From contig CM022668.1 of the NCBI GenBank assembly GCA_012295275.1, positions 372,001 to 436,000 of the forward strand: a stretch of DNA of 64,000 nucleotides, given 5' to 3'. The position numbers were made by a program, and so were the translations under genes. The notes under the pieces are model-generated. The model did no database searches and was not told the origin of the DNA. It saw only the letters and a list, made by a program, of their open reading frames with translations. Source of the stretch: Chrysomallon squamiferum (taxonomy: Eukaryota > Animalia > Mollusca). Of this stretch, positions 3,001-58,160 are shown piece after piece; position 1 is the first letter of the stretch, and each line of letters opens with the position of its first letter.

Positions 3001-3203
3001 TTTCAATCGTACACACACATAACAGACAGCATTGAATGCGTTCAGTTCTCAACTAGCCCCTTAAACGCTGTTAAGGGTTAATCATTACATCTGATATCCA
3101 TCATGTTGTGCGTGATTCTGTTTATTGAAAGAGACGAACACCGTCGGAACCGTTCGCTCCGAAAACGCAATCCTATAAACAGACATATGGAACGGCATTG
3201 AAT
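1..3203. repeat. Tandem satellite DNA, 169-bp monomer (~19 copies), truncated by gap
   Basis: CCCCTTAAACGC recurs at 1, 170, 339, 508 (169-bp period). Monomers share AACAGACAGCATTGAATGCGTTCAG and CCGCTCGCACTCCGAAACTT. Confidence 0.97.
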
Positions 3204-3403
3204 NNNNNNNNNNNNNNNNNNNNNNNNNNNNNNNNNNNNNNNNNNNNNNNNNNNNNNNNNNNNNNNNNNNNNNNNNNNNNNNNNNNNNNNNNNNNNNNNN
3301 NNNNNNNNNNNNNNNNNNNNNNNNNNNNNNNNNNNNNNNNNNNNNNNNNNNNNNNNNNNNNNNNNNNNNNNNNNNNNNNNNNNNNNNNNNNNNNNNNNNN
3401 NNN
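3204..3403. other. Assembly gap (200 N)
   Basis: Run of exactly 200 N. Confidence 1.
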
Positions 3404-5108: not shown

Positions 5109-5305
5109 TCAAGTAATAAATGCATTTTCTCCAAATGTAGGAACCTGAAATAATATTATTAAGTTCATGTGTCAGACACTAAACAAAATTTAAAAATCTA
5201 ATTAACTGACATGTATGAATGTATGTATATTTAATCATTGTGTGTGTTTGTGTGTCCATATTACATATAAACTGAATTAATTTTTATTTATAATAATGCT
5301 ATATT

Positions 5306-5338
<33 letters not shown>

Positions 5339-5790
5339 ATATTACATATAAACTGAATTAATTTTTATTTACAATAATGCTATATTGGTGTGTGTGTTTG
5401 TGTGTGTTTAGAAAAAATATTTATCAATTTGTAAACTGCTAAATATCAGTGAAAATAAAATATAAATTAATATACCTTTAATGATGTTTGCTCCTTTATG
5501 TCCCATCACAAGTCTGAAGTTTGAAACAGTTATAAAGTTAGTAAATATATCAATAAACATGTAGTGAGTTATAGTATCTGTAGTATCTGTGTGTTTTTAT
5601 GTGTGAAAACCTGGTCAATTTATTTGTGTATCTATGACACCTGTGTTTTTAGAAACGTTTTGTATGTGTATGTGTGTATGTATACTGGTAATAGGTGGAA
5701 AAAATGGGTAACTAGTTCTAAAATTAATTTTACAAATAAGAACAAATATTTCTTGACTGTGTTAATTGTTTATGTTTCTTTGCCAGTGTT

Positions 5791-5838
<48 letters not shown>

Positions 5839-8800
5839 TTTACAAAACATTATTTAATAATTTGTAAACTGGAAAGTATCAGTGACAATAAAATATAAAT
5901 AAAAATACCTTTAATAATGTTTGCTCATTAGTGTCACCATCACAAGTCTGAAGTTTAAAACAGTTATAAAGTTAGTAAATATATCAGTAAACATGTAGTG
6001 AGTTATACTTACAGTATCTGTAGTATCTGTGTGTTTTTAATGTATGATAACCTGGTCAATTTATATTTCTATCTATGGCACCTGTGTTTCTACAAATGTT
6101 AGGCATGTATATGTGTGTATGTATACCAGTAATGGATGGAAAACATGGATAAATAGTTCTAAAATTAACTTTACAAATCAGAACATATATTTCTAGGCTG
6201 TGTTGTTTGTGCCTCTTTGTTGTTGTCTGCAGTCAAAATGAAACAATTGCTGTCATACCACAAAATTAATGCGATGAGTTTATTGTTACTTTGTGATCCT
6301 CAAAGTGCAGTATGTTGCTGGATATTGCTAGTAATCATACCTGTAATTTGACTTCACTCAGACTGCCCATGTTTTGGAAGTCATAGGCAATGTTAACAAC
6401 TGAGTAACATACAACTCTAACACCTGAGTAACATACAACTCTAACACCTGAGTAACATACAACTCTAACACCTGAGTTACATACAATCTAACACCTGAGT
6501 TACATACAACTCTAACAACTGAGTTACATACAACTCTAACACCTGTGTAACATACAACTCTAACACCTGAGTCACATACAACTCTAATACCTGAGTAACA
6601 TACAACTCTAACACCTGAGTAACATACAACTCTAACACCTGAGTAACATACAATCTAACACCTGAGTTACATACAACTCTAACACCTGAGTAACATACAA
6701 CTCTAACACCTGAGTAACATACAACTCTAACACCTGAGTAACAACTCTCTAACACCTGAGTAACATACAACTCTAACACCTGAGTAACATACAACTCTAA
6801 CACCTGAGTAACATACAACTCTAACACCTGAGTAACATACAACTCTAACACCTGAGTTACATACAACTCTAACACCTGAGTAACATACAACTCTAACAAC
6901 TGAGTAACATACAACTCTAACACCTGAGTAACATACAACTCTAACACCTGAGTAACATACAACTCTAACAACTGAGTAACATACAACTCTAACAACTGAG
7001 TAACACATACATACAACTCTAACAACTGAGTAACATACAACTCTAACACCTGAGTAACATACAACAACTAACAACTGAGTAACATACAACTCTAACAACT
7101 GAGTAACATACAACTCTAACACCTGAGTAACATACAACTCTAACACCTGAGTAACATACAACTCTAACAACTGAGTAACATACAACTCTAACAACTGAGT
7201 AACATACAACTCTAACAACTGAGTAACATACAACTCTAACAACTGAGTAACATACAACTCTAACAACTGAGTAACATACAACTCTAACAACTGAGTAACA
7301 TACAACTCTAACACCTGAGTAACAACTCTAACAACTGAGTAACATACAACTAACAACTGAGTAACATACAACTCTAACAACTGAGTAACATACAACTCTA
7401 ACACCTGAGTAACATACAACTCTAACACCACACTCTAACAACTGAGTAACATACAACTCTAACAACTGAGTAACATACAACTCTAACAACTGAGTAACAT
7501 ACAACTCTAACAACTGAGTAACATACAACTCTAACAACTGAGTAACATACAACTCACACAACTCTAACAACTGAGTAACATACAACTCTAACAACTGAGT
7601 AACATACAACTCTAACAACTATAACAACTGAGTAACATACAACTCTAACAACTGAGTAACATACAACTCTAACAACTGAGTAACACAGAGTAACACAACT
7701 CTAACAACTGAGTAACATACAACTCTAACAACTGAGTAACATACAACTCTAACAACTGAGTAACACACAACTCTAACAACTGAGTAACATACAACTCTAA
7801 CAACTGAGTAACACACAACTCACACAACTATAACAACTGAGTAACATACAACTCTAACAACTGAGTAACATACAACTCTGGTAACACAACTAGTAACAAC
7901 TGAGTAACATACAGCTCTAAACTGAGTAACACACAACTCAGCAACAACTATAACAACTGGGTAACATACAACTCTAACAACTGAGTAACATACATAACAA
8001 CTAACACAACTCTAACAACTGAGTAACATACAACTCTAACAACTGAGTAACATACAACTCTAACAACTGAGTAACATACAACTCTAACAACTGAGTAACA
8101 TACAACTCTAACAACCTGAGTAACATACAACTCTAACAACTGAGTAACATACAACTCTAACAACTGAGTAACATACAACTCTAACAACTGAGTAACATAC
8201 AACTCTAACAACTGAGTAACATACAACTCTAACAACTGGGTAAACAAACATACAACTCATAACAACTGGTAACACAACTCTCAACAACTGAGTAACAACA
8301 TACAACTATAACAACTGAGTAACATACAACTCTAACAACTGAGTAACATACAACTCTAACAACTGAGTAACACACAACTCACACAACTCTAACAACTGAG
8401 TAACATACAACTCTAACAACTGAGTAACACACAACTCAAACAACTCTAACAACTGAGTAACATACAACTCTAACAACTGAGTAACACACAACTATAACAA
8501 CTGAGTACTCTCTAACTGAGTAACAACTGAGTAACACACAGCTCACACAACTACAACAACTGAGTAACAACTGAGTAACATACAACTCTAACAACTGAGT
8601 AACATACAACTCTAACAACTGAGTAACATACAACTCTAACACCTGAGTAACATACACAACTCTAACAACTGAGTAACATACAACTCTAACAACTGGTAAC
8701 ATACAACTCTAACAACTGAGTAACATACAACTGAGTAACATACAACTCTAACAACTGAGTAACATACAACTCTAACAACTGGTAACATACAACTCTAACA

Positions 8801-11800
8801 ACTGAGTAACATACAACTCTAACAACTGAGTAACATAACATACTCTAACAACTGGTAACATACAACTCTGAGTAACATACAACTCTAACACTGAGTAACA
8901 TATAACAACTGAGTAACACTCTAACACCTGAGTAACATACAACTCTAACAACTGAGTAACATACAACTCTAACAACTGAGTAACACACAACTAACACCTG
9001 AGTAACATACAATCTAACAACTAACATACAACTCAACTGAGTAACACTCTAACACCTGAGTAACACAACTCTAACAGTAACAACTCTAACAACTGAGTAA
9101 CATACAACTCTAACAACTGAGTAAACATACAACTCTAACAACTGAGTAACATACAACTCTAACAACTGAGTAACTAAACTGGGTAACATACAACTCTAAC
9201 AACTGAGTAACATACAACTCTAACAACTGAGTAACATACAACTCTAACAACTGAGTAACATACAACTCTAACAACTGAGTAACACACAACTCTAACAACT
9301 GAGTAACATACAACTCTAACAACTGAGTAACACACAACTCTATAACAACTGAGTAAACTGGGTAACACACAACTCACACAACTATAACAACTGAGTAACA
9401 TACAACTCTAACAACTGAGTAACATACAACTCACACAACTATAACAACTGAGTAACATACAACTCTAACAACTGAGTAACATACAACTCACACAACTATA
9501 ACAACTGAGTAACATACAACTCACACAACTATAACAACTGAGTAACATACAACTCAACACAACTGGTAACATACAGTAACATACAACTCTAACAACTGAG
9601 TAACATACAACTCTAACAACTGAGTAACATACAACTCTAACAACTGAGTAACACACACAACTCTAACAACTGAGTAACAACAACTCAACAACTAACAACT
9701 GAGTAACATACAACTCTAACAACTGAGTAACACACAGCTCTAACAACTGAGTAACTGAGTAACATACACAACTCTAACAACTGAGTAACATACAACTCTA
9801 ACAACTGAGTAACATACAGCTCTAACAACTGAGTAACACTATAACAACTGAGTAACATACAACTCTAACAACTGAGTAACAGTAACACACAACTCACAAA
9901 CTCTAACAACTGAGTAATACAACTCTACAACTGAGTAACACACAACTCTAACAACTGAGTAACATACAACTCACACAACTATAACAACTGAGTAACATAC
10001 AACTCTAACAACTGAGTAACAAGTAAACTGGGTAATACAACTCTACATAAACTCTAACAACTGAGTAACATACAACTCTAACAACAACTGAGTAACACAT
10101 ACACTCTAACAACTGAGTAACACACAACTCTAACAACTGAGTAACACACAACTCTAACAACTGAGTAACATACAACTCTAACAACTCTAACAACTGAGTA
10201 ACATACAGCTAACAATAACACACAACTCTAACAACTGAGTAACATACAACTCTAAACAAACTAACAACTGAGTAACATACAACTCTAACAACTGAGTAAC
10301 ATACAACTCTAACAACTGAGTAACACACAACTCAACAACTCTAACAACTGAGTAACATACAACTCTAACAACTGAGTAACACACAACTCTAACAACTGAG
10401 TAACATACAACTCTAACAACTGAGTAACACACAACTCTAACAACTGAGTAACAACTAACACACAGTAACAACTGAGTAACACAACTCTAACAACTGTAAG
10501 TAACATCACAACTCTAACAACTGAGTAACATACAACTCTAACAACTGAGTAACATACAACTCTAACAACTGAGTAACATACAACTCTAACAACTGAGTAA
10601 CATACAACTCTAACAACTGAGTAACATACAACTCTAACAACTGAGTAACATACAACTCTAACAACTGAGTAACATACAACTCTAACAACTGAGTAACATA
10701 CAACTCTAACAACTGAGTAACATACAACTCTAACAACTGAGTAACATACAACTCACACAACTCTAACAACTGAGTAACATACAACTCTAACAACTGAGTA
10801 ACATACAACTCTAACAACTGAGTAACATACAACTCACACAACTCTAACAACTGAGTAACATACAACTCTAACAACTGAGTAACACAACTCAACACAACTC
10901 AAACAACTCTAACATACAACTCTAACAACTGAGTAACATACAACTCTAACAACTGAACAACATACAACTCTACAACTCTAACAACTGAGTAACAACTCAC
11001 AAACTCTAACAACTGGGTAACATACAACTCTAACAACTGAGTAACATACAACTATAACAACTGGTAACAACTCTAACAACTGAGTAAATACAATACAACT
11101 CTAACAACTGAGTAACATACAACTCTAACAACTGAGTAACACAACTAACAAACAAACTCTAACAACTGAGTAACACACAACTCTAACAACTGAGTAACAC
11201 ACAACTCTAACAACTGAGTAACACACAACTCTAACAACTGAGTAACATACAACTAACAACTGAGTAACACACAACTCTAACAACTGTAACAGTAACAACT
11301 GAGTAACACACAACTAACAACTGAGCAACACACAACTCTAACAACTGAGTAACACACAACTCTAACAACTGAGTAACACACAACTATAACAACTGAGTAA
11401 ACTAACAACTGAGTAACACAACACACAACTATAACAACTGAGTAACACACAACTCTAACAACTGAGTAACACACAACTCACACAACTATAACAACTGAGT
11501 AACACACAACTCTAACAACTGAGTAACACACAACTCACACAACTATAACAACTGAGTAACACACAACTCTAACAACTGAGTAACACACAACTCACACAAC
11601 TATAACTGAGTAACACACAACTCTAACAACTGAGTAACACACAACTCACACAACTATAACAACTGAGTAACACACAACTCTAACAACTGAGTAACACACA
11701 ACTCACACAACTATAACAACTGAGTAACATACAACTCTAACAACTGAGTAACATACAACTCTAACAACTGAGTAACATACAACTCTAACAGCAGTCACAG

Positions 11801-13067
11801 ACATCTCTCAGACCCATGTCATAGACAAATCTAACAACTGAGTCACAGACAATTAACAGTTGAGTTGCATACAACTAGCAGTTGAGTTACAGACATATCT
11901 AACATCTGAGTAAAAGACAAGTCTAACAATTGAGTCAGAGGGAACTAACAATTCAGTCACAGGTATCTCTAACAATTGAGTCATAGACAACTAACACCTG
12001 ATTAATGTAAACTCACATCTGAGTCACAAACAACTCTAAACAAAAAACAAAACAAAAAATATTAAAAAGTAACAGAAATTAATTAACACGTCAGTAACTC
12101 TCGAACTGTGATGGATGTAAGATGAAACTGATTTTGAGCAAACGGTGATGTCTGTTCTGAGTGAACTCATAACATGGTATTTTGAGTAATAGATCAGAAA
12201 CTATTTCAGTGCTCATTAATATGAAATATTATTTTTACAATCAGTAATAAGCACATGAAAAATATATCGAATAGCAGTACATTAAAAAAATAGTATTCAG
12301 AGCAATATTTCATGTAATAGATAAAGTACTATTTTTATTAACTCAGTAATTTACTATTAAATAATATTCTGAGTAATGACTAAATTTTGGTTTCAGTAAT
12401 GATAAACAGCATTTAGAACATCTGATAAAAAAATAATTACTTGAATAACTGATAACAAGTATTTTGATTATCTAACAAATAGTATTTTGACTAATTAATA
12501 AACAGTATATTGATTACCTGATAGTATCTGTTTTGAGTAACTGACAGTGCTATTTCAGTGATTAATTAATAACATTTTGAGTAAGTGATAAACAGTATTT
12601 AATGTAACTCATAAACAATATTCTGAGTATCTGGTAACACTATTTTGAGTTTTCTTACTTGAAAACTTACTGTGCTTGTCTGTTTATCATGATTATCATG
12701 CAGCAAAGGCTGAAAAATAAATTAAAGTGATTTACGTAAATAAAAATATAAGTCTGTATGTATAAACTGAATTTATTTTTAACTATGATAATGATATATA
12801 GGTGTCTCTCTGTGTGTATGTATGGGTATGTAAATGTTTATTTACCAACAAATTATTTAACAATTTGTAAACTGGAAAGTATCAGTAACAGTAAAATATG
12901 AATTAAAATACCTCAGATAATGTTTGCTCCTTAGTGTCACCATCACAAGTCTGAAGTTTGAAACAGTTATAAAATTAGTAAATATATCAGTAAATGTGTA
13001 GGCAATGAAAAAAGTGAGTTGTAGTATCTGTAGTATCTGTGTGTTTTTATGTATAAATCGTTTACAT

Positions 13068-13128
<61 letters not shown>

Positions 13129-16100
13129 CACTGATAATTATCTGTACAATTGTCATTATCATTATTTTTATCATAATAATCAACATTAAATAAGTTATTA
13201 TCGCTAAATTATCCAAAGCAAACTTAAAAAAGACAACTAAAAAGAAAAAGAAAAGAAGAACAAAGAAACAAATTCCTCTGATACCTTATTTATAATTTCT
13301 GAGTTTTCTCCTAACTGAACACACTGTGTTCCTCCACTGTTGTTCACTATGTTGTTCACTATGTTGTTCACTATGTAGATCACTGTCTCTTGATCTGAAT
13401 ATCAAAATTACAACAACTGTTAATTATATTTTCCTCTTAAATAAGAAAAAAGAAAAATAACATCCACATTTTTTCAATATCCTAGAAATGTTTCGTTACA
13501 AATTAACAATACTTTACAATCTTTTTAATAGAGAATTTTTATGGCAACACTATATTTTAAGATATTTATACTAAAATACATTTTTGGTGTCAAACACTGA
13601 CTTACACTCAGAGACACACCAGTTCATATATATAAATGTATAATATGGTAATATCAATATATACATAAATACAGCATCTTTAGTTTCCACTTATTTCCTT
13701 ACCATTATCCTTCTTACCTTTTCTAGAATCAGATGCTTTGTCTGTCTTGAAACCTCCTGAAATTTGAAACATAAATATTTTAACATTATGCATATTCTGA
13801 TATTTAAAAAACATGCTCTTGAAACCTCCTGAAATTTAAAAAGTAAATATTTTTACATTATATCTACTCTGATATTTTAAAAATGTGTTGACGGAAGTGT
13901 TTCAACTGCAAGTACAAAATTTGTATAAATTCAAAATGGCTGCCACCAAGTCCTGCAGAGGCCATAAATGAATTACTGGCAGATAGGAAAGTGAAATTAA
14001 AGAACCAAAATATGCTTTCCAAATTTTTGTGTGGCACTGCTGACAGCAGTAATTGACATGAATGACACAATTTATCTGGACAAATGATCACCACTGTAAT
14101 GTATGAACTTAGGTCAACTTTCTTTCCTGCCTCTGTTCAGATCATCTCTTATCTCAGTGCTGTTATTCAATCATTTACATATTAGAACACAAGCAGTTTC
14201 ATTCACTTTTACATATACAATGCTGACCCATCATTAGAGGCACAGAGGGGGATGGCATAAATGCTTATATTTTCAAGGACCTCTTGTTACACTTATTCCG
14301 AATCTTCATGTTCAGCATCAACAGTAACACAAGCAGTATTACTCCATAATGAACCAGTTGTGTAGAGTATCACAGTCTTCAATTTTATTCATGAGATACT
14401 TTCGTATCCATATTTGTCAGACACAGACATGTATTCAGTATTTATTTCTGAACCCATTCAAACCTGGTTTGAAAAGAAAACCTTTGTAAGTGATGTTTCT
14501 CTGAATCTAAACAAACTTCACACAGGTGGCCATTTTTTCTTAAACCTTCTGAAAAAACAACTTTGAGATCTGAGAAAAGGTACCAAAGGGGTTCAGGCAG
14601 AAACCTTAAATTAAATTCAAGTGATCTTAACTGAAATGAGAGTGTTGAGTATTCAATTTGTGCAGTAATTTTAATCATCCTTTGCTTTTTAGCATGCTCA
14701 TTGTCTCTCTGGAACATCATAATTATGTCATTCTGAAGGCACATTTTTGTTCACCAATAATACATTTTATGCACTTTTTTTTACCCAAAATCATCAGAAC
14801 TTTATGTAGATATTCAGATTGCCCTGCTCTCAAGTCTAACCAGAAGCAGCCATTTTGTTACAGGATATGCCATTTTTGGCACACATCTAATGGACTAGTT
14901 ACAAAATAAATGTTTAATTAAGAAGTTAGATATTCTTACCTTTTTTATAACATATTACTCCAAAAGTGATAAATGCAACAACAATAACAGTGATGATACC
15001 AGCAATCAGACCAACAGTATTAGTTCTTTCTTCTGTTTCTAAATAAAATTGAAGAAGTATTTAAATATTAATTGAAAAATGTTTTCAACATAAATAATAA
15101 ATAATTAAAAAAGGTAATTATCAAATTCCTGTTAAAAAATGAACTGAAAAGAACTGAATGTTTTTTGCATAAAACCAGAACATGAATAAAGTGATTTGTC
15201 TATTTCTAATAAATATTACAAACTATTAAAAAATATATATATTTTATAATATCAGTGCTGGGAAAATGTTCTCTTTTTACCAGTCTTGACCAATTTGTGA
15301 TCACTGGGGCTGATGTTATTTTTGAAAAACATTGTTTACTGGTAATATTTTAAAAATATTTTTGATCAAAAGCATGCCATCATTTCTGTAATTAAAATAA
15401 TTTTATTTGTAAACAGTCTCACAACAAATTAAACACTTTGAACAACTCCGACATTTACTGCATACATCTGTCAGTAGTGTTTTCTTTGTTAACATGAAAT
15501 GAACATTGTATTAACGGAGTTAACATTTTGAATTAAGACTGACTCTGATGTATTCAAGTCAACACTCTCAGGTATTTCCTACAATGGTGATTACAAGTCA
15601 TGTGGAAAAAAAATAAAATAAAATAAAAAGAATTCACTAAGATAGGCACCAGTTTATCTGCTTTATATTTCTTTTTGGAGCAGGAATTAGCCTAAACCTT
15701 GATTTCTTAAAACATGTAGATGATACTGCTGCTCACAGTCATTAATGGTTTGAGATAAGATATTTAATAACACTAAAAATTAATGTCATATATTTAAGTA
15801 AGAATTTATCATCATCCAGTCATTGTTCATGTTATTAGTAGTTGTGCCATCAGTTTCTGTCAAATCCACTTAACCATTCAACCAACAAAACATTTGACAT
15901 TTATTAACATTCAACATGATGTCTGTTTACATGCACACAAATAGATATATAGACAGACAAACAGAGATCAATAGACAGACTGACAGACAGATAAAAAATA
16001 AAAAAGAGAGATAACAAAAGGTAAAGAAGTTTGATATTACCAGATACTGATGGCTTTCTGGTTGTCCTGAAGAAGAAAAAGAAAAAAAAAATGTCAGTCA

Positions 16101-18560
16101 ACAAATTCTAAAATATTTACTATGAAAATGGTATTTTTCAGTATCTTAATCACATGTCTGTATGTAAATTAACTATCTTAACAGACATTACATACATAAA
16201 CTATGTACAAACCTATACCTACAGAAACAATGTTCACATTAATTCTATCACTTCATCTACAACAAAATATGTACATATTCATGCATGCATAAACACACAC
16301 ATACAAAAAACAACAACAAACCTTTCAGTCTCTGCTGTTGATTTTTCAGCTGTTTTTTCAGTTGTTGTAGTATCAAGAACACAGTGAAAACCTTTAAATA
16401 AACAAAAACCAAATTCAAAAACCAGTACATGTTAAAATTGGTTTTATTTTATTTATTTATTTTTGTACAACTAATGTCAAACTATAAACATTTTCAAGTT
16501 GATAACAGAAATTAATAAAACAGTAATGTATACATATAAAAATGTTTTTAATTAAAGTTAATAACACCACAATAATACAACAAGCCAGTTATTTAAAAGA
16601 AAATGTATTTAGACTATTTATTACATCACATTTATGTGTCACACATTATTATTTTATTTCAGTAAAGGTTAATAATATCAGTGTAAATCTTTTTCCAGTA
16701 CAGAACTTTGTCTTCAACATGGAGTTTGCCTATTTTTAATAATCAGGTTTTACAAGATAAAACTCACTTGAATTGAGTTTCCCTTCACAATTACTTTTTA
16801 AGCACTTGCATGGTTCATTGAAGGTAAAACAGTGACAGTTTTCTGGTGATGGGGCATACTGTTGTTGATAGTCACAGCTACACTTTGTGTCCTCTATAGG
16901 TGTACCCTCCTTACACATCTTTTTGCCCTTCGTTTCACATGTCCTGTGTCGGTGGCTGCACACAGGAAAGATAAACGAGTATGATGCTCTCCCCACTGGC
17001 TGATAGGACCCGGCAGGACACAATTCACACTTAATAGTCCCATCTGGATAGAGTCTAGCATACAATCCTGCAAATAAAATAGTAAAAACATATATCTGTG
17101 TATGTGTGTGTTATGACAGTAAACTGTTTTTATCTCACACAGTAGGGCCCTTAACCATACCCTAATAGGGCCTTGATCAAGCTATGGAAAGTTTTCACAG
17201 TGATAGTTAGAGATACTGTTTGCTATGTTTATTTAACTTAGAAAATTGATCCTAACTTATTAAACCACAGATCACAATTTAGTTTATACCTCTTGTAGAA
17301 TTCGCAGGCAGCTATTTTTGGTTTGTTTTGTTTATTATAATAAATTATATTATTGTGCTATTAAGGAACAGTTTTGGAAAATACCGGTAACATACTGATT
17401 ATTAACCTAAATAGCTTACTTCAGTACCATCCAACATCTCATAATTAACTGGTATGCATAATTAAAGTCAGTAAATATGTACCCATTCATTTCTGTGTAT
17501 ATATATGTGTATATGTGTAATATTAAACTCTGATATAATATTGTACACTTTGTTAAGCAAAATCAAGTGGCTAAGTGATGCTATATATTAATATGCATGT
17601 ATGTAACACTATTGCTTGAATAAACTGTATTTTCAAAAGTACTTTAATACCAGGTAATTATCAAAGCAACTATACAGAAAAAAAACCATAAGGTGCCATT
17701 TTTTCCAAATCTGCACAGTGTCATTTCTTCCGGGTGCCATTTTTTCCTACAACCATTACCATATTAGGCAACTATATTTTGTGTTATTTTTGTTTAAGTC
17801 TGAAGGAGGGACAAATGGTTATTTTGTTTCTGTATGCTCTATTTTATATGTAGGTACGTGACAAAATTTTCAAAATTATTAATTTCCTCAAACATTATAC
17901 ATCATTAGAAAGAGCAAAAAAATTACTTTTAAAATGACACCAGAATCTCTTTGATAGTATTGATATGAAAAAAGTTACGAATTGTTATCAGAATAAAATC
18001 TGCAGTTATTTGGACAAAGTGTGATTTATTTCTGTCATTTTGCAGGATAAACACTGAATATGTCTTATACCTTCAGTCCACTATACATGTATTATGTATC
18101 AAAATGAAGCATTTTATGAGTTCTAAACCTGTACTGTATTTCTAAACAAGTTGCTAAAACTCATGAATTTTAATTAATTAATTAACCAGACTAATTTATT
18201 GTATGCCAATATTTCTCAGCACCCATCTGAGTTAGTCAGTCACATAACCTAAAGTGACTTGTTATTATCGATACTTTGACAAAAAGAAGTAGATATACAC
18301 TACTGACCTGGAGCACACTCTCGTGGCTGGTGACAAAATGAAATAACGCTGGAATCACCAGATTCCTGACAATGCAGTCTCTCAGTCTTCTGACAAAATT
18401 TCCACTCCAGACTCTTGTACTCTTGTGTTCCTACAGCTGGGCAGTAGTCTAAACCTAACACATTAACACAATCCAAGTTCTCAACACACAAAACTACTAC
18501 AACAAACAATACACAGACTATTTCACGTGTACAACTATTCCATTTTGTCTGGACAAACAT
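5109..18560 (-). CDS. TNF receptor superfamily-like type I membrane protein, copy A (~323 aa), RHIM-like tail, no death domain
   Basis: Exons 18560-18308, 17067-16768, 16391-16322, 16066-16041, 15038-14940, 13756-13718, 13394-13285, 12709-12671, 5144-5109. All GT-AG and phase-consistent, 972 nt in total. Signal-like IVCVLFVVVVLC; CRD CELCPAGSYQ..CSHRHRTC..G..EGTPIEDTKCSC; stalk TTTTEKTAEKST; TM VGLIAGIITVIVVAFITFGVICY followed by KK; C-terminus VPTFGENAFIT*. Confidence 0.85.
5266..6200 (+). repeat. Intronic local duplications (~430-bp tandem pair, related to 12760-13060)
   Basis: The block AATTTGTAAACTG..ATCAGT..CATCACAAGTCTGAAGTTT recurs near 5426, 5859 and 12862. Confidence 0.75.
6394..11790. 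repeat. Intronic 24-bp minisatellite (ACTCTAACAACTGAGTAACATACA)n, ~5.4 kb
   Basis: Direct tandem repeat with CACCTG/CAACTG variants and many indels. Degenerate tail to ~12040. Lies in the last intron of copy A. Confidence 0.97.
13285..13394 (-). other. RHIM-like motif exon of copy A
   Basis: TTCAG|ATC...AAG|GTATCA. Encodes DQETVIYIVNNIVNNIVNNSGGTQCVQLGENSEIINK, with VQLG at 13320-13309. Confidence 0.75.
14100..14900 (-). mobile_element. Decayed hAT-like transposase relic (internally deleted relative to copy B)
   Basis: Homologous to 38700-40200, which retains hAT-like motifs. Many stops. Confidence 0.35.
17111..18278. mobile_element. Copy-A-specific ~1.17-kb repeat-derived intronic insertion
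   Basis: The same intron is only ~145-200 bp in B (41692-41835) and C (55846-56041). No clear TIR or TSD found. Confidence 0.55.
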
Positions 18561-19539
18561 CACTGTTTACATGTATAGTTGTCACTTTTTACACAATCAG
18601 TTGTAACTTTTTACATGTACATATACAAATTAAATATTTTTGTTTTTTCTTTTTGTTCTGTGTGTTGTCAGATGACAGTATTCTGGAAACACAAGAATAT
18701 ATTCTTCAGTCAGTTATTCCTACAAGAAAATAATAATAAATATTATGTCATGATTAATATTAAGAATCAAATTTAATTATATTGGTATTTTAGCAATTAT
18801 TTTTGACAGAAAGGATTATTTTGTTAAAATAGATATGTTGTCCTTCCAGTTCATCATGCAGAGACTTCTTTGTTAACTGCTGTACACACACACTCAATGT
18901 GATGGGTGAATGATCACTATAAAAACAGGAAGATTTTATAAAATAAGAAACAAAACTGCAATTTGGGTTGCAGATTTGGCTTAAATATATTTCATTAAAA
19001 TGAGTAGACTATGACTACTACTACTACAACTACTGTTTAGTTACATATATATTAACAGTAAATTACAAACCTGTTCAAAATATGTCGTCTGATTAGAAGT
19101 TAAGGAAATATTTCAAAATGACTAGTAACTTCCAGTACTAAGCCAAAGTAATTACCAGGAAATATATTTAAAAATAAACATGATTACTACATTGGGTCAT
19201 TGTCAGGAACACAGACAATATTATTTCTGTTCAGATGGTGACACTGATTGTGTGGGGTGTTACTGACATCACTACTTACAACATTGTACATTTTTTATAT
19301 TTATGTGTATTTGTTAATTTACATGTGTTGGTATTTGTATCTTCATAATAACATTAATTTTCTTCTTTAGAAATTAGTGTCTCAGTGATGATATGTCTTT
19401 AATATAACCAAAATAATAATAATAATTACAGGAAGTTCATGTGTATATGTAATGAAAAGGCTTATGGATCAATTATTATTAATGTGTTATGTATATATAA
19501 AGGATTTTAACAGAGACTTTAATACCAGGTAATTAGTTG

Positions 19540-20427
19540 AAAAAGTATTTAAATATTAATTAAAAATGTTTTCAAATTTACCAGCAACATAAATAATAAT
19601 TAAAAAATGTTTTCAAATTTACCTGCAATATAAATAATAATTAAAAAATGTAATATCAAATTCATGTAAATCATGAACTGAAAAAGAACTGAATGTGAAT
19701 TTTCACTCTAAAAGAAGAACACGAGGAAACTGATTTGTTTATTTCTAATAAGCATTAGAAACTATTAAAAATATATATATATTTTATAATATCAGTGCTG
19801 GGAAAATGTATTTTTTTTTTTTACCGGTCTTGACCCTTTTGTGATCTTTGGGGCTAAGGTTATTTTTAAAAAACATTGTTTATAAAAAAAAAGAAAAAAA
19901 GAGATATAACAAAAGTTACAGAAGTTTTGTGTTACCAGATATGAATGGCTTTCTGGTTGTCTTGAAAAATAATATTAAGAAAAACATAATTGTCAGTCAA
20001 CACATTTTAGAATATTTTCCAGCATCTTAATTACATCTCCGTATGTAAATTAACTATCTTACATACACATTACATATACAAACACAAACACATACTATGT
20101 ACAAAGCTATACATACACGATGTACACATTAATGCTATCACTTTATCTATAATAAAATAGATACATGTTCATGCATGCATACAAACATAAGTAGTCTCTG
20201 TTGTTGATTTTTCAGTTGTTGGTTTGTCAGTGGTTGTAGTATCAAGAACACAGTGAAAGCCTTGAAATCAACAAAAACTAAATTTAAAAACCAGTACATG
20301 TTAAAATTAGTGTTATTTTATTTATTTACTTTTTAACAACTAACATCAAACTATAAACATTTTTAGTTGATAACTGAAATGAATAAAGCAGTAATATATA
20401 CATATAAAAATGTTTTTAATTTATGTT
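19540..20427 (-). pseudogene. Orphan duplicate of stalk exons plus flanking introns, in intron 1 of copy A
   Basis: TTRKPFIS-type micro-exon at 19960-19936 (acceptor altered) and FHCVLDTTT exon at ~20260-20191 (donor lost). Intron sequence resembles copy B 40780-40860. Confidence 0.7.
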
Positions 20428-34047: not shown

Positions 34048-42100
<8,053 letters not shown>

Positions 42101-47587: not shown

Positions 47588-47784
47588 TCAAGTAATAAAT
47601 GCATTTTCTCCAAATGTAGGAACCTGAAATAATATTATTAAGTTCATGTGTCAGACACTAAACAAAATTTAAAAATCTAATTAACTGACATGTATGAATG
47701 TATGTATATTTAATCATTGTGTGTGTTTGTGTGTCCATATTACATATAAACTGAATTAATTTTTATTTATAATAATGCTATATT

Positions 47785-47817
<33 letters not shown>

Positions 47818-48268
47818 ATATTACATATAAACTGAATTAATTTTTATTTACAATAATGCTATATTGGTGTGTGTGTTTAGAAAAAATATTTATCAATTTG
47901 TAAACTGCTAAGTATCAGTGAAAATAAAATATAAATTAATATACCTTTAATGATGTTTGCTCCTTTATGTCACCATCACAAGTCTGAAGTTTGAAACAGT
48001 TATAAAGTTAGTAAATATATCAATAAACATGTAGTGAGTTATAGTATCTGTAGTATCTGTGTGTTTTTATGTGTGAAAACCTGGTCAATTTATTTGTGTA
48101 TCTATGACACCTGTGTTTTTAGAAACGTTTTGTATGTGTATGTGTGTATGTATACTGGTAATAGGTGGAAAAAATGGGTAACTAGTTCTAAAATTAATTT
48201 TACAAATAAGAACAAATATTTCTTGACTGTGTTAATTGTTTATGTTTCTTTGCCAGTGTTTGCATGTA

Positions 48269-48322
<54 letters not shown>

Positions 48323-51300
48323 TTTACTAAAAATTATTTAATAATTTGTAAACTGGAAAGTATCAGTGACAATAAAATATAAATAAAAATACCTTTAATA
48401 ATGTTTGCTCATTAGTGTCACCATCACAAGTCTGAAGTTTAAAACAGTTATAAAGTTAGTAAATATATCAGTAAACATGTAGTGAGTTATAGTATCTGTG
48501 TGTTTTCAATGTGTGATAACCTGGTCAATTTATATTTGTATCTATGGCACCTGTGTTTCTAGAAATGTTAGGCATGTATATGTGTGTATGTATACCAGTA
48601 ATCGATGGAAAACATGGATAAATAGTTCTAAAATTAACTTTACAAATCAGAACATATATTTCTAGGCTGTGTTGTTTATGCCTCTTTGTTGTTGTCTGCA
48701 GTCAAAATGAAACAATTGCTGTCATACCACAAAATTAATGCGATGAGTTTATTGTTACTTTGTGATCCTCAAAGTGCAGTATTTTGCTGGATATTGCTAG
48801 TAATCATCCCTGTAATTTGACTTCACTCAGACTGCCCATGTTTTGGAAGTCATAGGCAATGTTAACAACTGAGTTACATACAACTCTAACACCTGAGTCA
48901 CATACAACTCTAACACCTGAGTCACATACAACTCTAACACCTGAGTCACATACAACTCTAACACCTGAGTCACATACAACTCTAACACCTGAGTCACATA
49001 CAACTCTAACACCTGAGTCACATACAATTCTAACACCTGAGTCACATACAACTCTAACACCTGAGTCACATACAACTCTAACACCTGAGTTACATACAAC
49101 TCTAACACCTGAGTCACATACAACTCTAACACCTGAGTTACATACAACTCTAACACCTGAGTCACATACAACTCTAACACCTGAGTCACATACAACTCTA
49201 ACACCTGAGTCACATACAACTCTAACACCTGAGTCACATACAACTCTAACACCTGAGTCACATACAACTCTAACAACTGAGTCACATACAACTCTAACAC
49301 CTGAGTCACATACAACTCTAACAACTGAGTCACATACAACTCTAACACCTGAGTAACATACAACTCTAACACCTGAGTAACATACAACTCTAACACCTAT
49401 GTAACATACAACTCTAACACCTGTGTAACATACAACTCTAACAACTGAGTAACATACAACTCTAACACCTGAGTAACATACAACTCTAACACCTGAGTAA
49501 CATACAACTCTAACACCTGAGTAACATACAACTCTAACACCTGAGTTACATACAACTCTAACAACTGAGTAACATACAACTCTAACAACTGAGTAACATA
49601 CAACTCTAACACCTGAGTAACATACAACTCTAACACCTGAGTAACATACAACTCTAACAACTGAGTTACATACAACTCTAATAACTGAGTAACATACAAC
49701 TCTAATAACTGAGTAACATACAACTCTAACAACTGAGTAACATACAATCTAACACCTGAGTAACATACAACTCTAACAACTGAGTAACATACAACTCTAA
49801 CAACTGAGTAACATACAATCTAACACCTGAGTAACATACAACTCTAACAACTGAGTCACATGCAACTCCACCAGCTGAGTTACATACAACTCTAACACCT
49901 GAGTTACATACAACTCTAACAACTGAGTAACATACAACTCTAACAACTGAGTAACATACAACTCTAACACCTGAGTAACATACAACTCTAACAACTGAGT
50001 TACATACAACTCTAACACCTGAGTTACATACAACTCTAACAACTGAGTAACATACAACTCTAACAACTGAGTAACATACAACTCTAACACCTGAGTAACA
50101 TACAACTCTAACACCTGAGTAACATACAACTCTAACACCTGAGTTACATACAACTCTAACAACTGAGTTACATACAACTCTAATAACTGAGTAACATACA
50201 ACTCTAACACCTGAGTAACACACAACTCACACAACTATAACAACTGAGTAACACACAACTCTAACAACTGAGTAACATACAACTCTAACACCTGAGTAAC
50301 ACACAACTCACACAACTATAACAACTGAGTAACACACAACTCTAACAACTGAGTAACATACAACTCACACAACTCTAACAACTGAGTCACACACAACTCA
50401 CACAACTCTAACAACTGAGTAACATACAACTCTAACAAGTGAGTAACACACAACTCACACAACTCTAACAACTGAGTCACACACAACTCTAACAAGTGAG
50501 TAACACACAACTCACACAACTATAACAACTGAGTAACATACGTCAGTAACTCTCGAACTGTGATGGATGTAAGATGAAACTGATTTTGAGCAAACGGTGA
50601 TGTCTGTTCTGAGTGAACTCATAACATGGTATTTTGAGTAATAGATCAGAAACTATTTCAGTGCTCATTAATATGAAATATTATTTTTACAATCAGTAAT
50701 AAGCACATGAAAAATATATCGAATAGCAGTACATTAAAAAAATAGTATTCAGAGCAATATTTCATGTAATAGATAAAGTACTATTTTTATTAACTCAGTA
50801 ATTTACTATTAAATAATATTCTGAGTAATGACTAAATTTTGGTTTCAGTAATGATAAACAGCATTTAGAACATCTGATAAAAAAATAATTACTTGAATAA
50901 CTGATAACAAGTATTTTGATTATCTAACAAATAGTATTTTGACTAATTAATAAACAGTATATTGATTACCTGATAGTATCTGTTTTGAGTAACTGACAGT
51001 GCTATTTCAGTGATTAATTAATAACATTTTGAGTAAGTGATAAACAGTATTTAATGTAACTCATAAACAATATTCTGAGTATCTGGTAACACTATTTTGA
51101 GTTTTCTTACTTGAAAACTTACTGTGCTTGTCTGTTTATCATGATCAACACACAGCAAAGGCTGAAAAATAAATTAAAGTGATTTAAGTAAATAAAAATA
51201 TAAGCCTGCATGTATAAACTGAATTTATTTTTAACTATGATAATGATATATAGGTGTCTCTCTGTGTGTATGTATGGGTATGTAAATGTTTATTTACCAA

Positions 51301-51517
51301 CAAATTATTTAACAATTTGTAAACTGGAAAGTATCAGTAACAGTAAAATATGAATTAAAATACCTCAGATAATGTTTGCTCCTTAGTGTCACCATCACAA
51401 GTCTGAAGTTTGAAACAGTTATAAAATTAGTAAATATATCAGTAAATGTGTAGGCAATGAAAAAAGTGAGTTGTAGTATCTGTAGTATCTGTGTTTTTAT
51501 GTATAAATAGTTTACAT

Positions 51518-51564
<47 letters not shown>

Positions 51565-54500
51565 CACTGATAATTATCTGTACAATTGTCATTATCATTA
51601 TTTTTATCATAATAATCAACATTAAATAAGTTATTATCGCTAAACTATCCAAAGCAAACTTAAAAAAGACAACTAAAAAGAAAAAGAAAAGAAGAACAAA
51701 GAAACAAATTCCTCTGATACCGTAATTCTAATTTGTGAGTAGTTTCCTAACTGAACACACTGTGTTCCGCTACTGTTCACTATGTTGATCACTGTCTCTT
51801 GATCTGAATATCAAAATTACAACAACTGTTAATTATATTTTCCTCTTAAATAAGAAAAAAGAAAAATAACATCCACATTTTTTCAATATCCTAGAAATGT
51901 TTCGTTACAAATTAACAATACTTTACAATCTTTTTAATAGAGAATTTTTATGGCAACACTATATTTTAAGATATTTATACTAAAATACATTTTTGGTGTC
52001 AAACACTGACTTACACTCAGAGACACACCAGTTCATATATATAAATGTATAATATGGTAATATCAATATATACATAAATACAGCATCTTTAGTTTCCACT
52101 TATTTCCTTACCATTATCCTTCTTACCTTTTCTAGAATCAGATGCTTTGTCTGTCTTGAAACCTCCTGAAATTTGAAACATAAATATTTTAACATTATGC
52201 ATATTCTGATATTTAAAAAAACATGCTGACGGAAGCCATTAAACTGGAAGTACACTATTTATATAAATTCAAAATGGCTGCCAGCAAGTCCTGTAGAGAC
52301 CATTATCTCTTAAACAGCCTGCTCTAGACCCCATAAATGTATTACTGGCAGATAGGACAGTGTCATTAAAGAACAAAAATGTTCCTTCAAAATTTTTGTG
52401 TGGCATCGCAGACAGCAGATAAGATGCAGGTGACATGAAACACACAATTTATGGTGACAAATGATCCGAGATTTTATTTTTGGGTGCCAGAGATCAAAAT
52501 ATCAGTATACCAGCTGGATATGTTATAATATCTGAATTTTTACTTATTTCCTTACCTTTATCCTTCTTATCTTTTTTAGCACAAAATGTTTTAATCCTCT
52601 TGAAACCTCCTGAAATTTAAAAAGTAAATATTTTTACATTATATCTACTCTGATATTTTAAAAATGTGTTGATGGAAGTGTTTCAACTGCAAGTACAAAA
52701 TTTGTATAAATTCAAAATGGCTGCCACCAAGTCCTGCAGAGGCCATAAATGAATTACTGGCAGATAGGAAAGTGAAATTAAAGAACCAAAATATGCTTTC
52801 CAAATTTTTGTGTGGCACTGCTGACAGCAGTAATTGACATGAATGACACAATTTATCTGGACAAATGATCACCACTGTAATGTATGAACTTAGGTCAACT
52901 TTCTTTCCTGCCTCTGTTCAGATCATCTCTTATCTCAGTGCTGTTATTCAATCATTTACATGTTAGAACACAAGCAGTTTCATTCACTTTTACATATACA
53001 ATGCTGACCCATCATTAGAGGCACAGAGGGGGATGGCATAAATGCTTATATTTTCAAGGACCTCTTGTTACACTTATTCCGAATCTTCATGTTCAGCATC
53101 AACAGTAACACAAGCAGTATTACTCCATAATGAACCAGTTGTGTAGAGTATCACAGTCTTCAATTTTATTCATGAGATACTTTCGTATCCATATTTGTCA
53201 GACACAGACATGTATTCAGTATTTATTTCTGAACCCATTCAAACCTGGTTTGAAAAGAAAACCTTTGTAAGTGATGTTTCTCTGAATCTAAACAAACTTC
53301 ACACAGGTGGCCATTTTTTCTTAAACCTTCTGAAAAAACAACTTTGAGATCTGAGAAAAGGTACCAAAGGGATTCAGGCAGAAACCTTAAATTAAATTCA
53401 AGTGATCTTAACTGAAATGAGAGTGTTGAGTATTCAATTTGTGCAGTAATTTTAATCATCCTTTGCTTTTTAGCATGCTCATTGTCTCTCTGGAACATCA
53501 TAATTATGTCATTCTGAAGGCACATTTTTGTTCACCAATAATACATTTTATGCACTTTTTTTTACCCAAAATCATCAGAACTTTATGTAGATATTCAGAT
53601 TGCCCTGCTCTCAAGTCTAACCAGAAGCAGCCATTTTGTTACAGGATATGCCATTTTTGGCATACATCTAATGGACTAGTTACAAAATAAATGTTTAATT
53701 AAGAAGTTAGATATTCTTACCTTTTTTATAACATATTACTCCAAAAGTGATAAATGCAACAACAATAACAGTGATGATACCAGCAATCAGACCAACAGTA
53801 TTAGTTCTTTCTTCTGTTTCTAAATAAAATTGAAGAAGTATTTAAATATTAATTGAAAAATGTTTTCAACATAAATAATAAATAATTAAAAAAGGTAATT
53901 ATCAAATTCCTGTTAAAAAATGAACTGAAAAGAACTGAATGTTTTTTGCATAAAACCAGAACATGAATAAAGTGATTTGTCTATTTCTAATAAATATTAC
54001 AAACTATTAAAAAATATATATATTTTATAATATCAGTGCTGGGAAAATGTTCTCTTTTTACCAGTCTTGACCAATTTGTGATCATTGGGCTGATGTTATT
54101 TTTGAAAAACATTGTTTACTGGTAATATTTTAAAAATATTTTTGATCAAAAGCATGCCATCATTTCTGTAATTAAAATAATTTTATTTCTAAACAGTCAC
54201 AACAAATTAAACACTTTGAACAACTCCCACATTTACTGCATACATCTGTCAGTAGTGTTTTCTTTGTTAACATGAAATGAACATTGTATTAACGGAGTTA
54301 ACATTTTGAATTAAGACTGACTCTGATGTATTCAAGTCAACACTCTCAGGTATTTCCTACAATGGTGATTACAAGCTGTGTGGAAAAAAAATAAAATAAA
54401 ATAAAAAGAATTCACTAAGATAGGCACCAGTTTATCTGCTTTATATTTCTTTTTGGAGCAGGAATTAGCCTAAACCTTGATTTCTTAAAACATGTAGATG

Positions 54501-55933
54501 ATACTGCTGCTCACAGTCATTAAGGGTTTGAGATAAGATATTTAATAACACTAAAAATTAATGTCATATATTTAAGTAAGAATTTATCATCATCCAGTCA
54601 TTGTTCATGTTATTAGTAGTTGTGCCATCAGTTTCTGTCAAATCCACTTAACCATTCAACCAACAAAACATTTGACATTTATTAACATTCAACATGATGT
54701 CTCTTTACATGCACACAAATAGATATATAGACAGACAAACAGAGATCAATAGACAGACTGACAGACAGATAAAAAATAAAAAAGAGAGATAACAAAAGGT
54801 AAAGAAGTTTGATATTACCAGATACTGATGGCTTTCTGGTTGTCCTGAAGAAGAAAAAGAAAAAAAAAATGTCAGTCAACAAATTCTAAAATATTTACTA
54901 TGAAAATGGTATTTTTCAGTATCTTAATCACATGTCTGTATGTAAATTAACTATCTTAACAGACATTACATACATAAACTATGTACAAACCTATACCTAC
55001 AGAAACAATGTTCACATTAATTCTATCACTTCATCTACAACAAAATATGTACATATTCATGCATGCATAAACACACACATACAAAAAACAACAACAAACC
55101 CTTCAGTCTCTGCTGTTGATTTTTCAGCTGTTTTTTCAGTTGTTGTAGTATCAAGAACACAGTGAAAACCTTTAAATAAACAAAAACCAAATTCAAAAAC
55201 CAGTACATGTTAAAATTGGTTTTATTTTATTTATTTATTTTTGTACAACTAATGTCAAACTATAAACATTTTCAAGTTGATAACAGAAATTAATAAAACA
55301 GTAATGTATACATATAAATATGTTTTTAATTAAAGTTAATAACACCACAATAATACAACAAGCCAGTCATTTGAACAAAAATGTATTTAGACTACTTATT
55401 ACATTACATTTATGTGTCACACATTATTATTTTATTTCAGTAAAGGTTAATAATATCAGTGTAAATCTTTTTCCAGTACAGAACTTTGTCTTCAACATGG
55501 AGTTTGCCTATTTTTAATAATCAGGTTTTACAAGATAAAACTCACTTGAATTGAGTTTCCCTTCACAATTACTTTTTAAGCACTGGCATGGTTCATTGAA
55601 GGTAAAACAGTGACAGTTTTCTGGTGATGGGGCATACTGTTGTTGATAGTCACAGCTACACTTTGTGTCCTCTATAGGTGTACCCTCCTTACACATCTTT
55701 TTGCCATTCGTTTCACATGTCCTGTGTCGGTGGCTGCACACAGGAAAGATAAACGAGTATGATGCTCTCCCCACTGGCTGATAGGACCCGGCAGGACACA
55801 ATTCACACTTAATAGCCTCATCTGGATAGAGTCTAGCATACGATCCTGAAAATAAAATAGTAAAAACATATTTTAAATACATGTTTATGTGCATGTGCAT
55901 ATGTATGTATGTCTGTATGTGTGTGTATGTATG

Positions 55934-55967
<34 letters not shown>

Positions 55968-56306
55968 TGTGTGTATGTATGTATGTATAGACAGATTGAC
56001 AGACAGGCAGACACAAAAAGAAGTAGATATACACTACTAACCTGGAGCACACTCTCGTGGCTGGTGACAAAATGAAATAACGCTGGAATCACCAGACTCC
56101 TGACAATGCAGTCTGTCAGTCTTCTGACAAAATTTCCACTCCAGACTCTTGTACTGTTGTGTTCCTACAGCTGGGCAGTAGTCTAAACCTAACACATTAA
56201 CACAATCCAAGTTCTCAACACACAAAACTACTACAAGAAACAATACACAGACTATTTCACCTGAACAACTCTTCCATTTTGTCTGGACAAACATCACTGA
56301 TTGCAT
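47588..56306 (-). CDS. TNF receptor superfamily-like protein, copy C (~318-336 aa), RHIM-like tail
   Basis: Exons 56306-56042, 55845-55546, 55169-55100, 54844-54819, 53819-53721, 52609-52556 and/or 52165-52127, 51803-51721, 51161-51123, 47623-47588. All GT-AG and in frame. Confidence 0.85.
48863..50541. repeat. Intronic 24-bp minisatellite, ~1.7 kb
   Basis: Same unit as 6394-11790, but more regular. Confidence 0.97.
51721..51803 (-). other. RHIM-like motif exon of copy C
   Basis: Encodes DQETVINIVNSSGTQCVQLGNYSQIRIT, with VQLG at 51756-51745. Confidence 0.78.
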
Positions 56307-57269: not shown

Positions 57270-58160
57270 TAGTTGAAAAAGTATTTAAATATTAATTAAA
57301 AATGTTTTCAAATTTACCAGCAACATAAATAATAATTAAAAAATGTAATACCAAATTCATGTAAATCATGAACTGAAAAAGAACTGAATGTGAATTTTCA
57401 CTCTAAAAGAAGAACACGAGGAAACTGATTTGTTTATTTCTAATAAGCATTAGAAACTATTAAAAAAATATATATATTTTATAATATCAGTGCTGGGAAA
57501 ATGTATTTTTTTTTACCGATCTTGACCCTTTTGTGATCTTTGGGGCTAAGGTTATTTTTAAAAAACATTGTTTACTTGTCATATTACTGGAGAGAGAGAG
57601 AGAGAGAGAGAGAGATCAAAAAAAAAAAAAAAAGAGATATAACAAAAGTTACAGAAGTTTTGTGTTACCAGATATGAATGGCTTTCTGGTTGTCTTGAAA
57701 AATAATATTAAGAAAAACATAATTGTCAGTCAACACATTTTAGAATATTTTCAGCATCTTAATTATATCTCTGTATGTAAATTAACTATCTTACACACAC
57801 ATTACATATACAAACACATACACATACTATGTACAAAGCTATACATACACAATATACACATTAATGCTATCACTTTATCTATAATAAAATAGATACATGT
57901 TCATGCATGCATACAAACATAAGTAGTCTCTGTTGTTGATTTTTCAGTTGTTGGTTTGTCAGTGGTTGTAGTATCAAGAACACAGTGAAAGCCTTGAAAT
58001 AAACAAAAACTAAATTTAAAAACCAGTACATGTTAAAATTAGTGTTATTTTATTTATTTACTTTTTAACAACTAACATCAAACTATAAACATTTTTAGTT
58101 GATAACTGAAATGAATAAAGCAGTAATATATACATATAAAAATGTTTTTAATTTATGTTT
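57270..58160 (-). pseudogene. Orphan stalk-exon duplicate in intron 1 of copy C
   Basis: Duplicate of 19540-20427. Confidence 0.7.

Follow-up and report, generated by a model that had tools for sequence, protein, structure and literature searches.

The 64,000-nucleotide stretch of the Chrysomallon squamiferum genome analysed here (in the following, the window) contains three tandem gene copies on its minus strand, denoted A, B and C, which probably encode TNF receptor (TNFR)-type receptors, two of them (A and C) bearing a RHIM-like motif of their own. Judged from sequence and RNA contigs, the feature is real and expressed; it is not a canonical RHIM and would, if functional, represent a new receptor-borne variant of RHIM-type signalling. 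The copies were found by self-comparison and splice-site anchors, and joining their exons by coordinates, with AG/GT ends, yields open frames of 349 (A), 329 (B) and 353 (C) residues. Each copy comprises (i) an N-terminal hydrophobic stretch, (ii) an ectodomain with 18 cysteines, (iii) a Thr-rich stalk, (iv) one transmembrane (TM) helix, and (v) a tail. Hydropathy places two hydrophobic stretches at residues ∼8–35, a putative signal peptide, and ∼222–249, that is, in a type I layout.

In gene A, exon 1 (18308..18560; this and all following exons on the minus strand) provides the start codon, the hydrophobic stretch that is likely the signal peptide and the first Cys-rich module, while exon 2 (16768..17067) encodes the TNFR-type cysteine-rich modules, as assigned from RNA joints, profiles and models. 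The last cysteine and Thr-rich stalk (exon 3, 16322..16391) and further stalk (exon 4, 16041..16066) rest on the gene model and RNA joints, and the TM helix (exon 5, 14940..15038) on hydropathy and RNA joints. A basic juxtamembrane segment follows (exon 6, 13703..13756; gene model and RNA joints), whose donor, in frame in either case, lies after 13718 or after 13703, the latter being taken in the RNA. Exon 7 (13285..13394; frame scan and RNA joints) encodes the RHIM-like motif with its VQLG core and an in-frame 12-bp repeat expansion. The tail continues with exon 8 (12912..12950), which is of a repeated tail exon type, and exon 9 (12671..12709), both 39 nt long and placed by gene model and RNA joints, a second 39-nt copy of the exon-8 type (5909..5947) and the last coding exon with the stop (5109..5144). 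Gene C (47588..56294) has 12 coding exons with the motif exon, again encoding VQLG, at 51721..51803, and gene B (34048..42088) has 10, its motif exon (36629..36711) retaining the front strand but reading VQTE in place of the core, as seen in the copy comparison.

Introns of C are 96–99% identical to those of A, so that C may be a recent duplicate or an uncollapsed haplotype; the contrast between A and C described below holds either way. Copy B is 92–93% identical to A in its ectodomain and has a diverged TM exon. At the DNA level, B and A are 97% identical in exons 1–2 and 95–100% in exons 8–9, but differ by 20–26% in the TM exon, exon 6 and the motif exon, a mosaic pattern which suggests gene conversion. 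The juxtamembrane exon of B (38393–38452) further encodes two cysteines within an F-C-T repeat, possible palmitoylation sites that are absent in A and C. Orphan copies of stalk exons 3/4 with altered splice sites lie upstream of A (19934–20264, minus strand) and of C (57667–57996, minus strand) and may be remnants of a further duplicate.

Splicing and reading frame were examined with RNA contigs from four runs of one study, mapped to 12100–18700 at 90% likeness, a setting at which any allele or paralogue may align. The joint of exons 1 and 2 (17066/18307) was found in two of the four runs, the 2–3, 3–4 and 4–TM joints each in all four, and the TM–6 joint in one. The motif exon (13394–13285; 110 nt, AG/GT ends, phase 1 to 0) is joined to exon 6 in all four runs, through letters between, and to exon 8 at 12950/13285 in three, the fourth showing 12951/13287 with one letter between; the 8–9 joint is again present in all four. 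An exon-8-type piece follows exon 9 in one run, and in another the end of such a piece is joined, by a loose contig end, to the last exon. Since the contigs connect a close variant of the motif exon to both neighbours in the VQLG frame, the exon is coding and in frame, as the sequence-only reading had claimed for 13285..13394 and its quoted peptide, and for splicing to ectodomain, stalk, TM helix and tail; the context given there for C was likewise correct. The contigs show a single I-V-N unit, compared with 3.9 copies of the 12-bp repeat in the genomic sequence of A, and hence derive from an allele or paralogue other than A. In two of the four runs a Tyr replaces the Cys before the core, and VQLG is present in the RNA form. 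Two further joints were each seen in one run: the in-frame joint 16389/18306 skips exon 2 and would give an isoform devoid of most of the cysteine-rich ectodomain, and at 18700/18307 the donor of exon 1 connects to an acceptor further upstream, near 18718, reflecting either back-splicing (circular RNA) or a tandemly copied exon.

The ectodomain is of a divergent TNFR-superfamily type, as judged by profiles and predicted folds, and would presumably bind a ligand; the window itself contains no candidate for one. A profile built from 27 relatives and exons 1–2 of the window (A8) retrieved two matches from the PDB, OPG (E 4.5e-6) and the second cysteine-rich domain of TNFR1 (CRD2), and all four PDB matches of profile A1 were TNFRSF members (best CD40, E 0.0096); exon 2 alone had no PDB match. 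The top three ESM Atlas clusters were TNFR_c6 (scores 0.85–0.86). Among the Foldseek rows listed for the exon-2 model (pLDDT 68), 38 of 39 are TNFR-type, none at E≤1e-3, and the model of the abalone relative P0057 (ectodomain pLDDT >90) yielded 19 matches at E≤1e-3, with DcR3 best (6e-5). In the VIA comparison, the top 22 rows for P0057 were all TNFRSF members, with modest best values (Z 6.2, rmsd 3.7, 93 aligned). The claimed TNFR-type ectodomain is thus borne out by family profiles and fold, but not by Pfam: despite its 18 cysteines, neither of the two ectodomain exons nor any of the 36 relatives scanned matched TNFR_c6. A/B/C share the hydrophobic N-terminus, Cys-rich TNFR-type fold, stalk and single TM helix with TNFRs that lack a death domain (CD40, OPG, HVEM, DcR3 and invertebrate members; PMC4979521), yet their ectodomain is too divergent for TNFR_c6 and their tails contain no TRAF motif.

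A search with exon 2 returned 19 representatives at E≤1e-3, the named ones being from molluscs apart from P0001. This top representative match is a Cys-poor repeat protein and was dropped as spurious. A word-indexed comparison of exon 2 with longer proteins found no match among three candidates. In the ectodomain tree, A/B/C are not resolved among the gastropod rows, with abalone proteins as nearest relatives. The Haliotis protein XP_046377158.2 and the Mytilus protein XP_063419304.1 share with A/B/C the cysteine framework of exons 1–2 and the overall layout, and A/B/C mark an unannotated family of mollusc receptors that is missed by Pfam. The tails of these uncharacterised receptors are, in contrast, unrelated in sequence to those of A/B/C, and no similarity was found between the tails of the window genes and the 57 collected proteins. 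With the caveat that some fusions may be gene-model artefacts, the same ectodomain and hydrophobic segment are followed by a CARD (P0035, P0052), by an Hsp70-like (P0054), ankyrin (P0015) or Ig (P0044) region, by short tails or, in abalone, long disordered ones carrying a looser RHIM-like stretch; in the Mytilus members a CARD follows the TM helix, and the tail of P0030 looks helical while lacking a Pfam match. This pattern suggests that tails of the family are exchangeable modules, the RHIM-like motif taking the place that a death-fold domain has in mussels. Likewise, amphioxus RHIMs occupy the usual positions of death-fold domains (PMC4262963).

No death domain is present in the tails of the window genes (83–108 residues of short charged exons, with the stop exon joined in the RNA), in agreement with the sequence-only reading. 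A death domain hidden downstream was considered and rejected, as the last exon has a stop and is joined in the RNA. The proposed tail length of ∼75 residues proved too short: the tails measure 104 (A), 83 (B) and 108 (C) residues, to which the RNA-used second donor adds ∼5 in A and C, the difference arising from the additional 39-nt exons and from a last exon located beyond a 5.5-kb minisatellite intron. Searched with patterns for TRAF2/3 and TRAF6, none of the three tails contains a consensus site. Since neither a death domain nor a TRAF2/3/6 motif is found, the usual TNFR outputs are missing. The tails are otherwise 25–27% charged, and the motif is their sole uncharged, Pro-free window rich in Val, Ile and Asn, the kind of segment as which RHIMs have been described (PMC4262963); by composition, its flanks are charged, rich in Ser/Thr and poor in hydrophobic residues.

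Within this segment, a six-frame scan of the window placed VQLG on the minus strand at 13320 (A) and 51756 (C). The core tetrad in its published definition, (V/I)-Q-(V/I/L/C)-G, is present in both A and C and also in the RNA form, with B reading VQTE, and such a bare tetrad arises in ∼1.2% of shuffled tails. When compared with the six RIPK1/3 RHIMs of the PMC4262963 supplement, which also agrees with the RIPK1 and RIPK3 sequences quoted in the sequence-only reading, copy C fits the residue classes of the front half exactly, followed by three extra residues, the core, and aliphatic residues in register. Among 300,000 shuffled versions of the C tail, none contained both the front half and, across a gap of at most 4, the tetrad (analytically 4e-6 per tail); this pattern was chosen post hoc. 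It is absent from all 57 collected proteins and has a single occurrence across the six frames of the window, C alone fitting and A and B failing. At the level of sequence, copy C thus resembles RIPK RHIMs well beyond chance, and to this extent the claim of a RHIM stands; it does not extend to the canonical spacing, which is absent, nor to Pfam RHIM, which matched neither any homologue nor any of the motif segments (27–36 residues, short queries of low power run without a positive control). The aliphatic pair lies at −11/−9 in B and C, and I-V at −10/−9 in A, compared with −8/−6 in canonical RHIMs, so that we classify the motif as a RHIM-like variant. As foreseen in the sequence-only reading, three extra residues precede the core and a Ser occupies the position of the conserved Asn that, ahead of an apolar residue, follows a canonical core. 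In a deep scan of RIPK3, nucleation is increased by single insertions ahead of strand 2, three-residue insertions lying outside the scan, and changes in the third strand have little effect (bioRxiv 10.64898/2026.02.19.706818), for which reason the exchange of Asn for Ser appears minor.

With the RHIMs of RIPK1, RIPK3, TRIF and ZBP1, copy C shares the I-x-N-S-S-G front strand, VQLG, trailing aliphatic residues and charged, possibly unstructured flanks. It differs in its three extra loop residues and in having no Asn at its customary position behind the Gly, and the motif is lost in B; moreover, it is borne here by a receptor rather than by a cytosolic kinase, adaptor or sensor. VQLG of A and C, but not the sequence of B, also fits the VxxG core of cryptic RHIMs (cRHIMs), a very loose criterion. 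Searches of the PDB and ESM Atlas, again with short queries and no positive control, gave no RHIM-related match for the motif exon or for the abalone segments; the motif-exon profile retrieved a β-hairpin of CD44 (E 0.014) rather than any RHIM fibril. For the exon of A, predicting a complex of four copies gave a score of 0.02 and a mark of 0.32, from which we draw no verdict.

Conservation of the core, chosen beforehand as a point on which the RHIM claim might fail, gave a divided result: the tetrad is kept in A and C, but it is lost in B and absent in its strict form from all 36 homologue tails, these being what remains of the 57 collected proteins after removal of 12 (P0001 and 11 shorter than 150 residues) and of 9 without a TM call. 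In 7 of the 36 tails an aliphatic strand precedes a less strict stretch, VI[LV]G, all of them abalone orthologues from three species, the pattern having been drawn up only after the abalone stretch was seen. The loop of this stretch is one residue shorter than that of RIPK3, and its conservation does not exceed that of neighbouring positions. No homology between this stretch and the motif of the window was detectable by hhalign (0.1%), and MAFFT did not align the two on the tetrad.

Copies A and C differ at 10 of 83 aligned bases in the motif exon, all in residue-changing codons and with the tetrad unchanged, and at 1 of 300 bases in the flanking introns (Fisher p 1.3e-6, post hoc). As several of these differences share codons, they are not independent. 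Nine of the other ten exons differ by 0–2.8%, and exon 9 has also diverged (4 of 39). The excess of residue-changing over silent differences is not significant for the motif exon alone (p 0.095), while gene-wide the count is 26 versus 1 (p 0.013). Similarly, primate RIPK3 shows rapid change around a fixed RHIM core (PMC12119088). Fast change around the core is as expected for an interface subject to host–pathogen conflict or partner specificity, which the motif may represent.

On balance, and with somewhat better than even confidence, we favour the view that the motif is a RHIM variant which would confer amyloid signalling on a clustered receptor. With an amyloid motif of its own, the receptor might directly nucleate a fibril for signalling: a ligand would cluster the receptor and thereby bring several tails into contact, whose front and VQLG strands could then stack in register into a cross-β seed, and the stack might recruit a RHIM adaptor, likely of the spiralian RIPK1 type, with NF-κB or death signalling as the outcome. 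RIPK1 bearing a RHIM is reported for spiralians, namely zebra mussel and Lingula (PMC12119088). Copy B, having a near-identical ectodomain and no core, would serve as a non-nucleating or decoy version. It is tempting, though we rate it at somewhat less than an even chance, to extend this to a mollusc TNFR-type family with interchangeable tails, in which, in the present lineage, the position of the CARD or death domain has been taken by a RHIM, ligand clustering nucleates amyloid directly on the receptor, death-domain adaptors are bypassed, and tandem copies with one ectodomain, diversified around the core and in one case without it, act as activating and decoy receptors in an arms race.

Three other explanations deserve consideration. 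The motif might be a non-amyloid linear motif, likely a β-hairpin or strand docking onto a folded adaptor, with its RHIM likeness an ancestral residue or the product of convergence. The columns invariant in A, B and C are in fact those of the front strand and of GTQ-x-VQ, with the L and G of the core excluded, and both the non-canonical spacing and the CD44 hairpin match agree with docking; yet that match is weak, derives from three near-identical rows and concerns an extracellular protein, while both halves of C fit the residue classes of RIPK RHIMs far beyond chance, and we consider docking unlikely, if worth keeping in mind. Alternatively, a RHIM-derived motif could be inhibitory, the receptors capping or soaking up RHIM assemblies or serving as ligand sinks. 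Pirk sets a precedent as a RHIM-like inhibitor (PMC4262963), and the altered spacing, the core lost in B and the exon-2-skipped isoform of one run would be consistent with such a role. The core is, however, preserved in A and C as well as in the RNA form, and the membrane receptors with such motifs, PGRP-LC and SRB2, activate (PMC13506858), so we judge inhibition to be rather improbable.

Finally, exon duplication could have produced a fast-drifting tail of low complexity, devoid of any signalling motif, with VQLG present by chance. A bare tetrad is expected in about 1% of shuffled tails, the 39-nt exons are repeated, and the tail is unlike any of the 57 collected proteins. The extended pattern in 0 of 300,000 shuffles argues against this view, as does the concentration of substitutions in the motif exon far above the level of the flanking introns, which is unexpected under drift; we therefore regard chance as improbable.

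A RHIM variant on a TNFR-type receptor would add to the receptors known to carry an amyloid motif of their own, which include PGRP-LC, shrimp SRB2 and insect STING (PMC4262963, PMC13506858 and PMC10268257). Like PGRP-LC/Imd in Drosophila and SRB2/IMD in shrimp (same sources), A and C combine a membrane receptor with a putative amyloid-type motif in a predicted cytoplasmic tail without enzymatic activity; in contrast, the ectodomain is TNFR-type rather than of PGRP or scavenger type, and the core follows canonical (V/I)Q(V/I/L/C)G instead of a cryptic VxxG. The literature searched, mostly outside subscription journals, contained no TNFR with a RHIM, though a prior case may be among the RHIM proteins, TM ones included, in Figure 1 of Kajava 2014. 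Nor are RHIMs mentioned in the papers on invertebrate TNFRs or lophotrochozoan apoptosis that were examined. A RHIM-containing protein of oyster was reportedly described by Liu et al. in 2024. PMC4979521 lists the role of invertebrate TNFRs lacking a death domain as an open question, to which a receptor-borne RHIM, if confirmed, would provide a concrete and testable answer. It would also link receptors of the TNF type with amyloid signalling independently of the mammalian relay through death domain and RIPK1. The three copies further constitute a natural experiment, in which near-identical ectodomains are combined with a core that is retained amid differing flanks in two copies and lost in the third.

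Several additional features of the locus were noted. All three last exons (5109–5144, 34048–34083 and 47588–47623, minus strand) end in P-T-F-G-(E/G)-N-x-F-I-T, a stretch (PTFG-E-N in A) that is reminiscent of either another cryptic RHIM core or a docking motif at the C-terminus and is retained in B despite loss of the first core. A third exon-8-type copy in A (5476–5513, minus strand) has 38 nt and, being one base short, cannot be spliced in frame, whereas its counterpart in C (47945–47983) is intact. The intron after exon 9 holds minisatellite arrays (6394–11935 in A, 48863–50538 in C and 34479–35434 in B) of 24-bp units, or 44-bp units in B. One frame of the C array is open over 314 codons and encodes an 8-residue Val/Cys repeat, with a Pfam Cornifin match below cut-off. 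The arrays were taken as non-coding; those of 24-bp units sit between spliced exons, and that of A is full of stops. At one end of the window, a 169-bp satellite of 18.7 copies spans 1–3164, and a 200-N assembly gap lies at 3204–3403.
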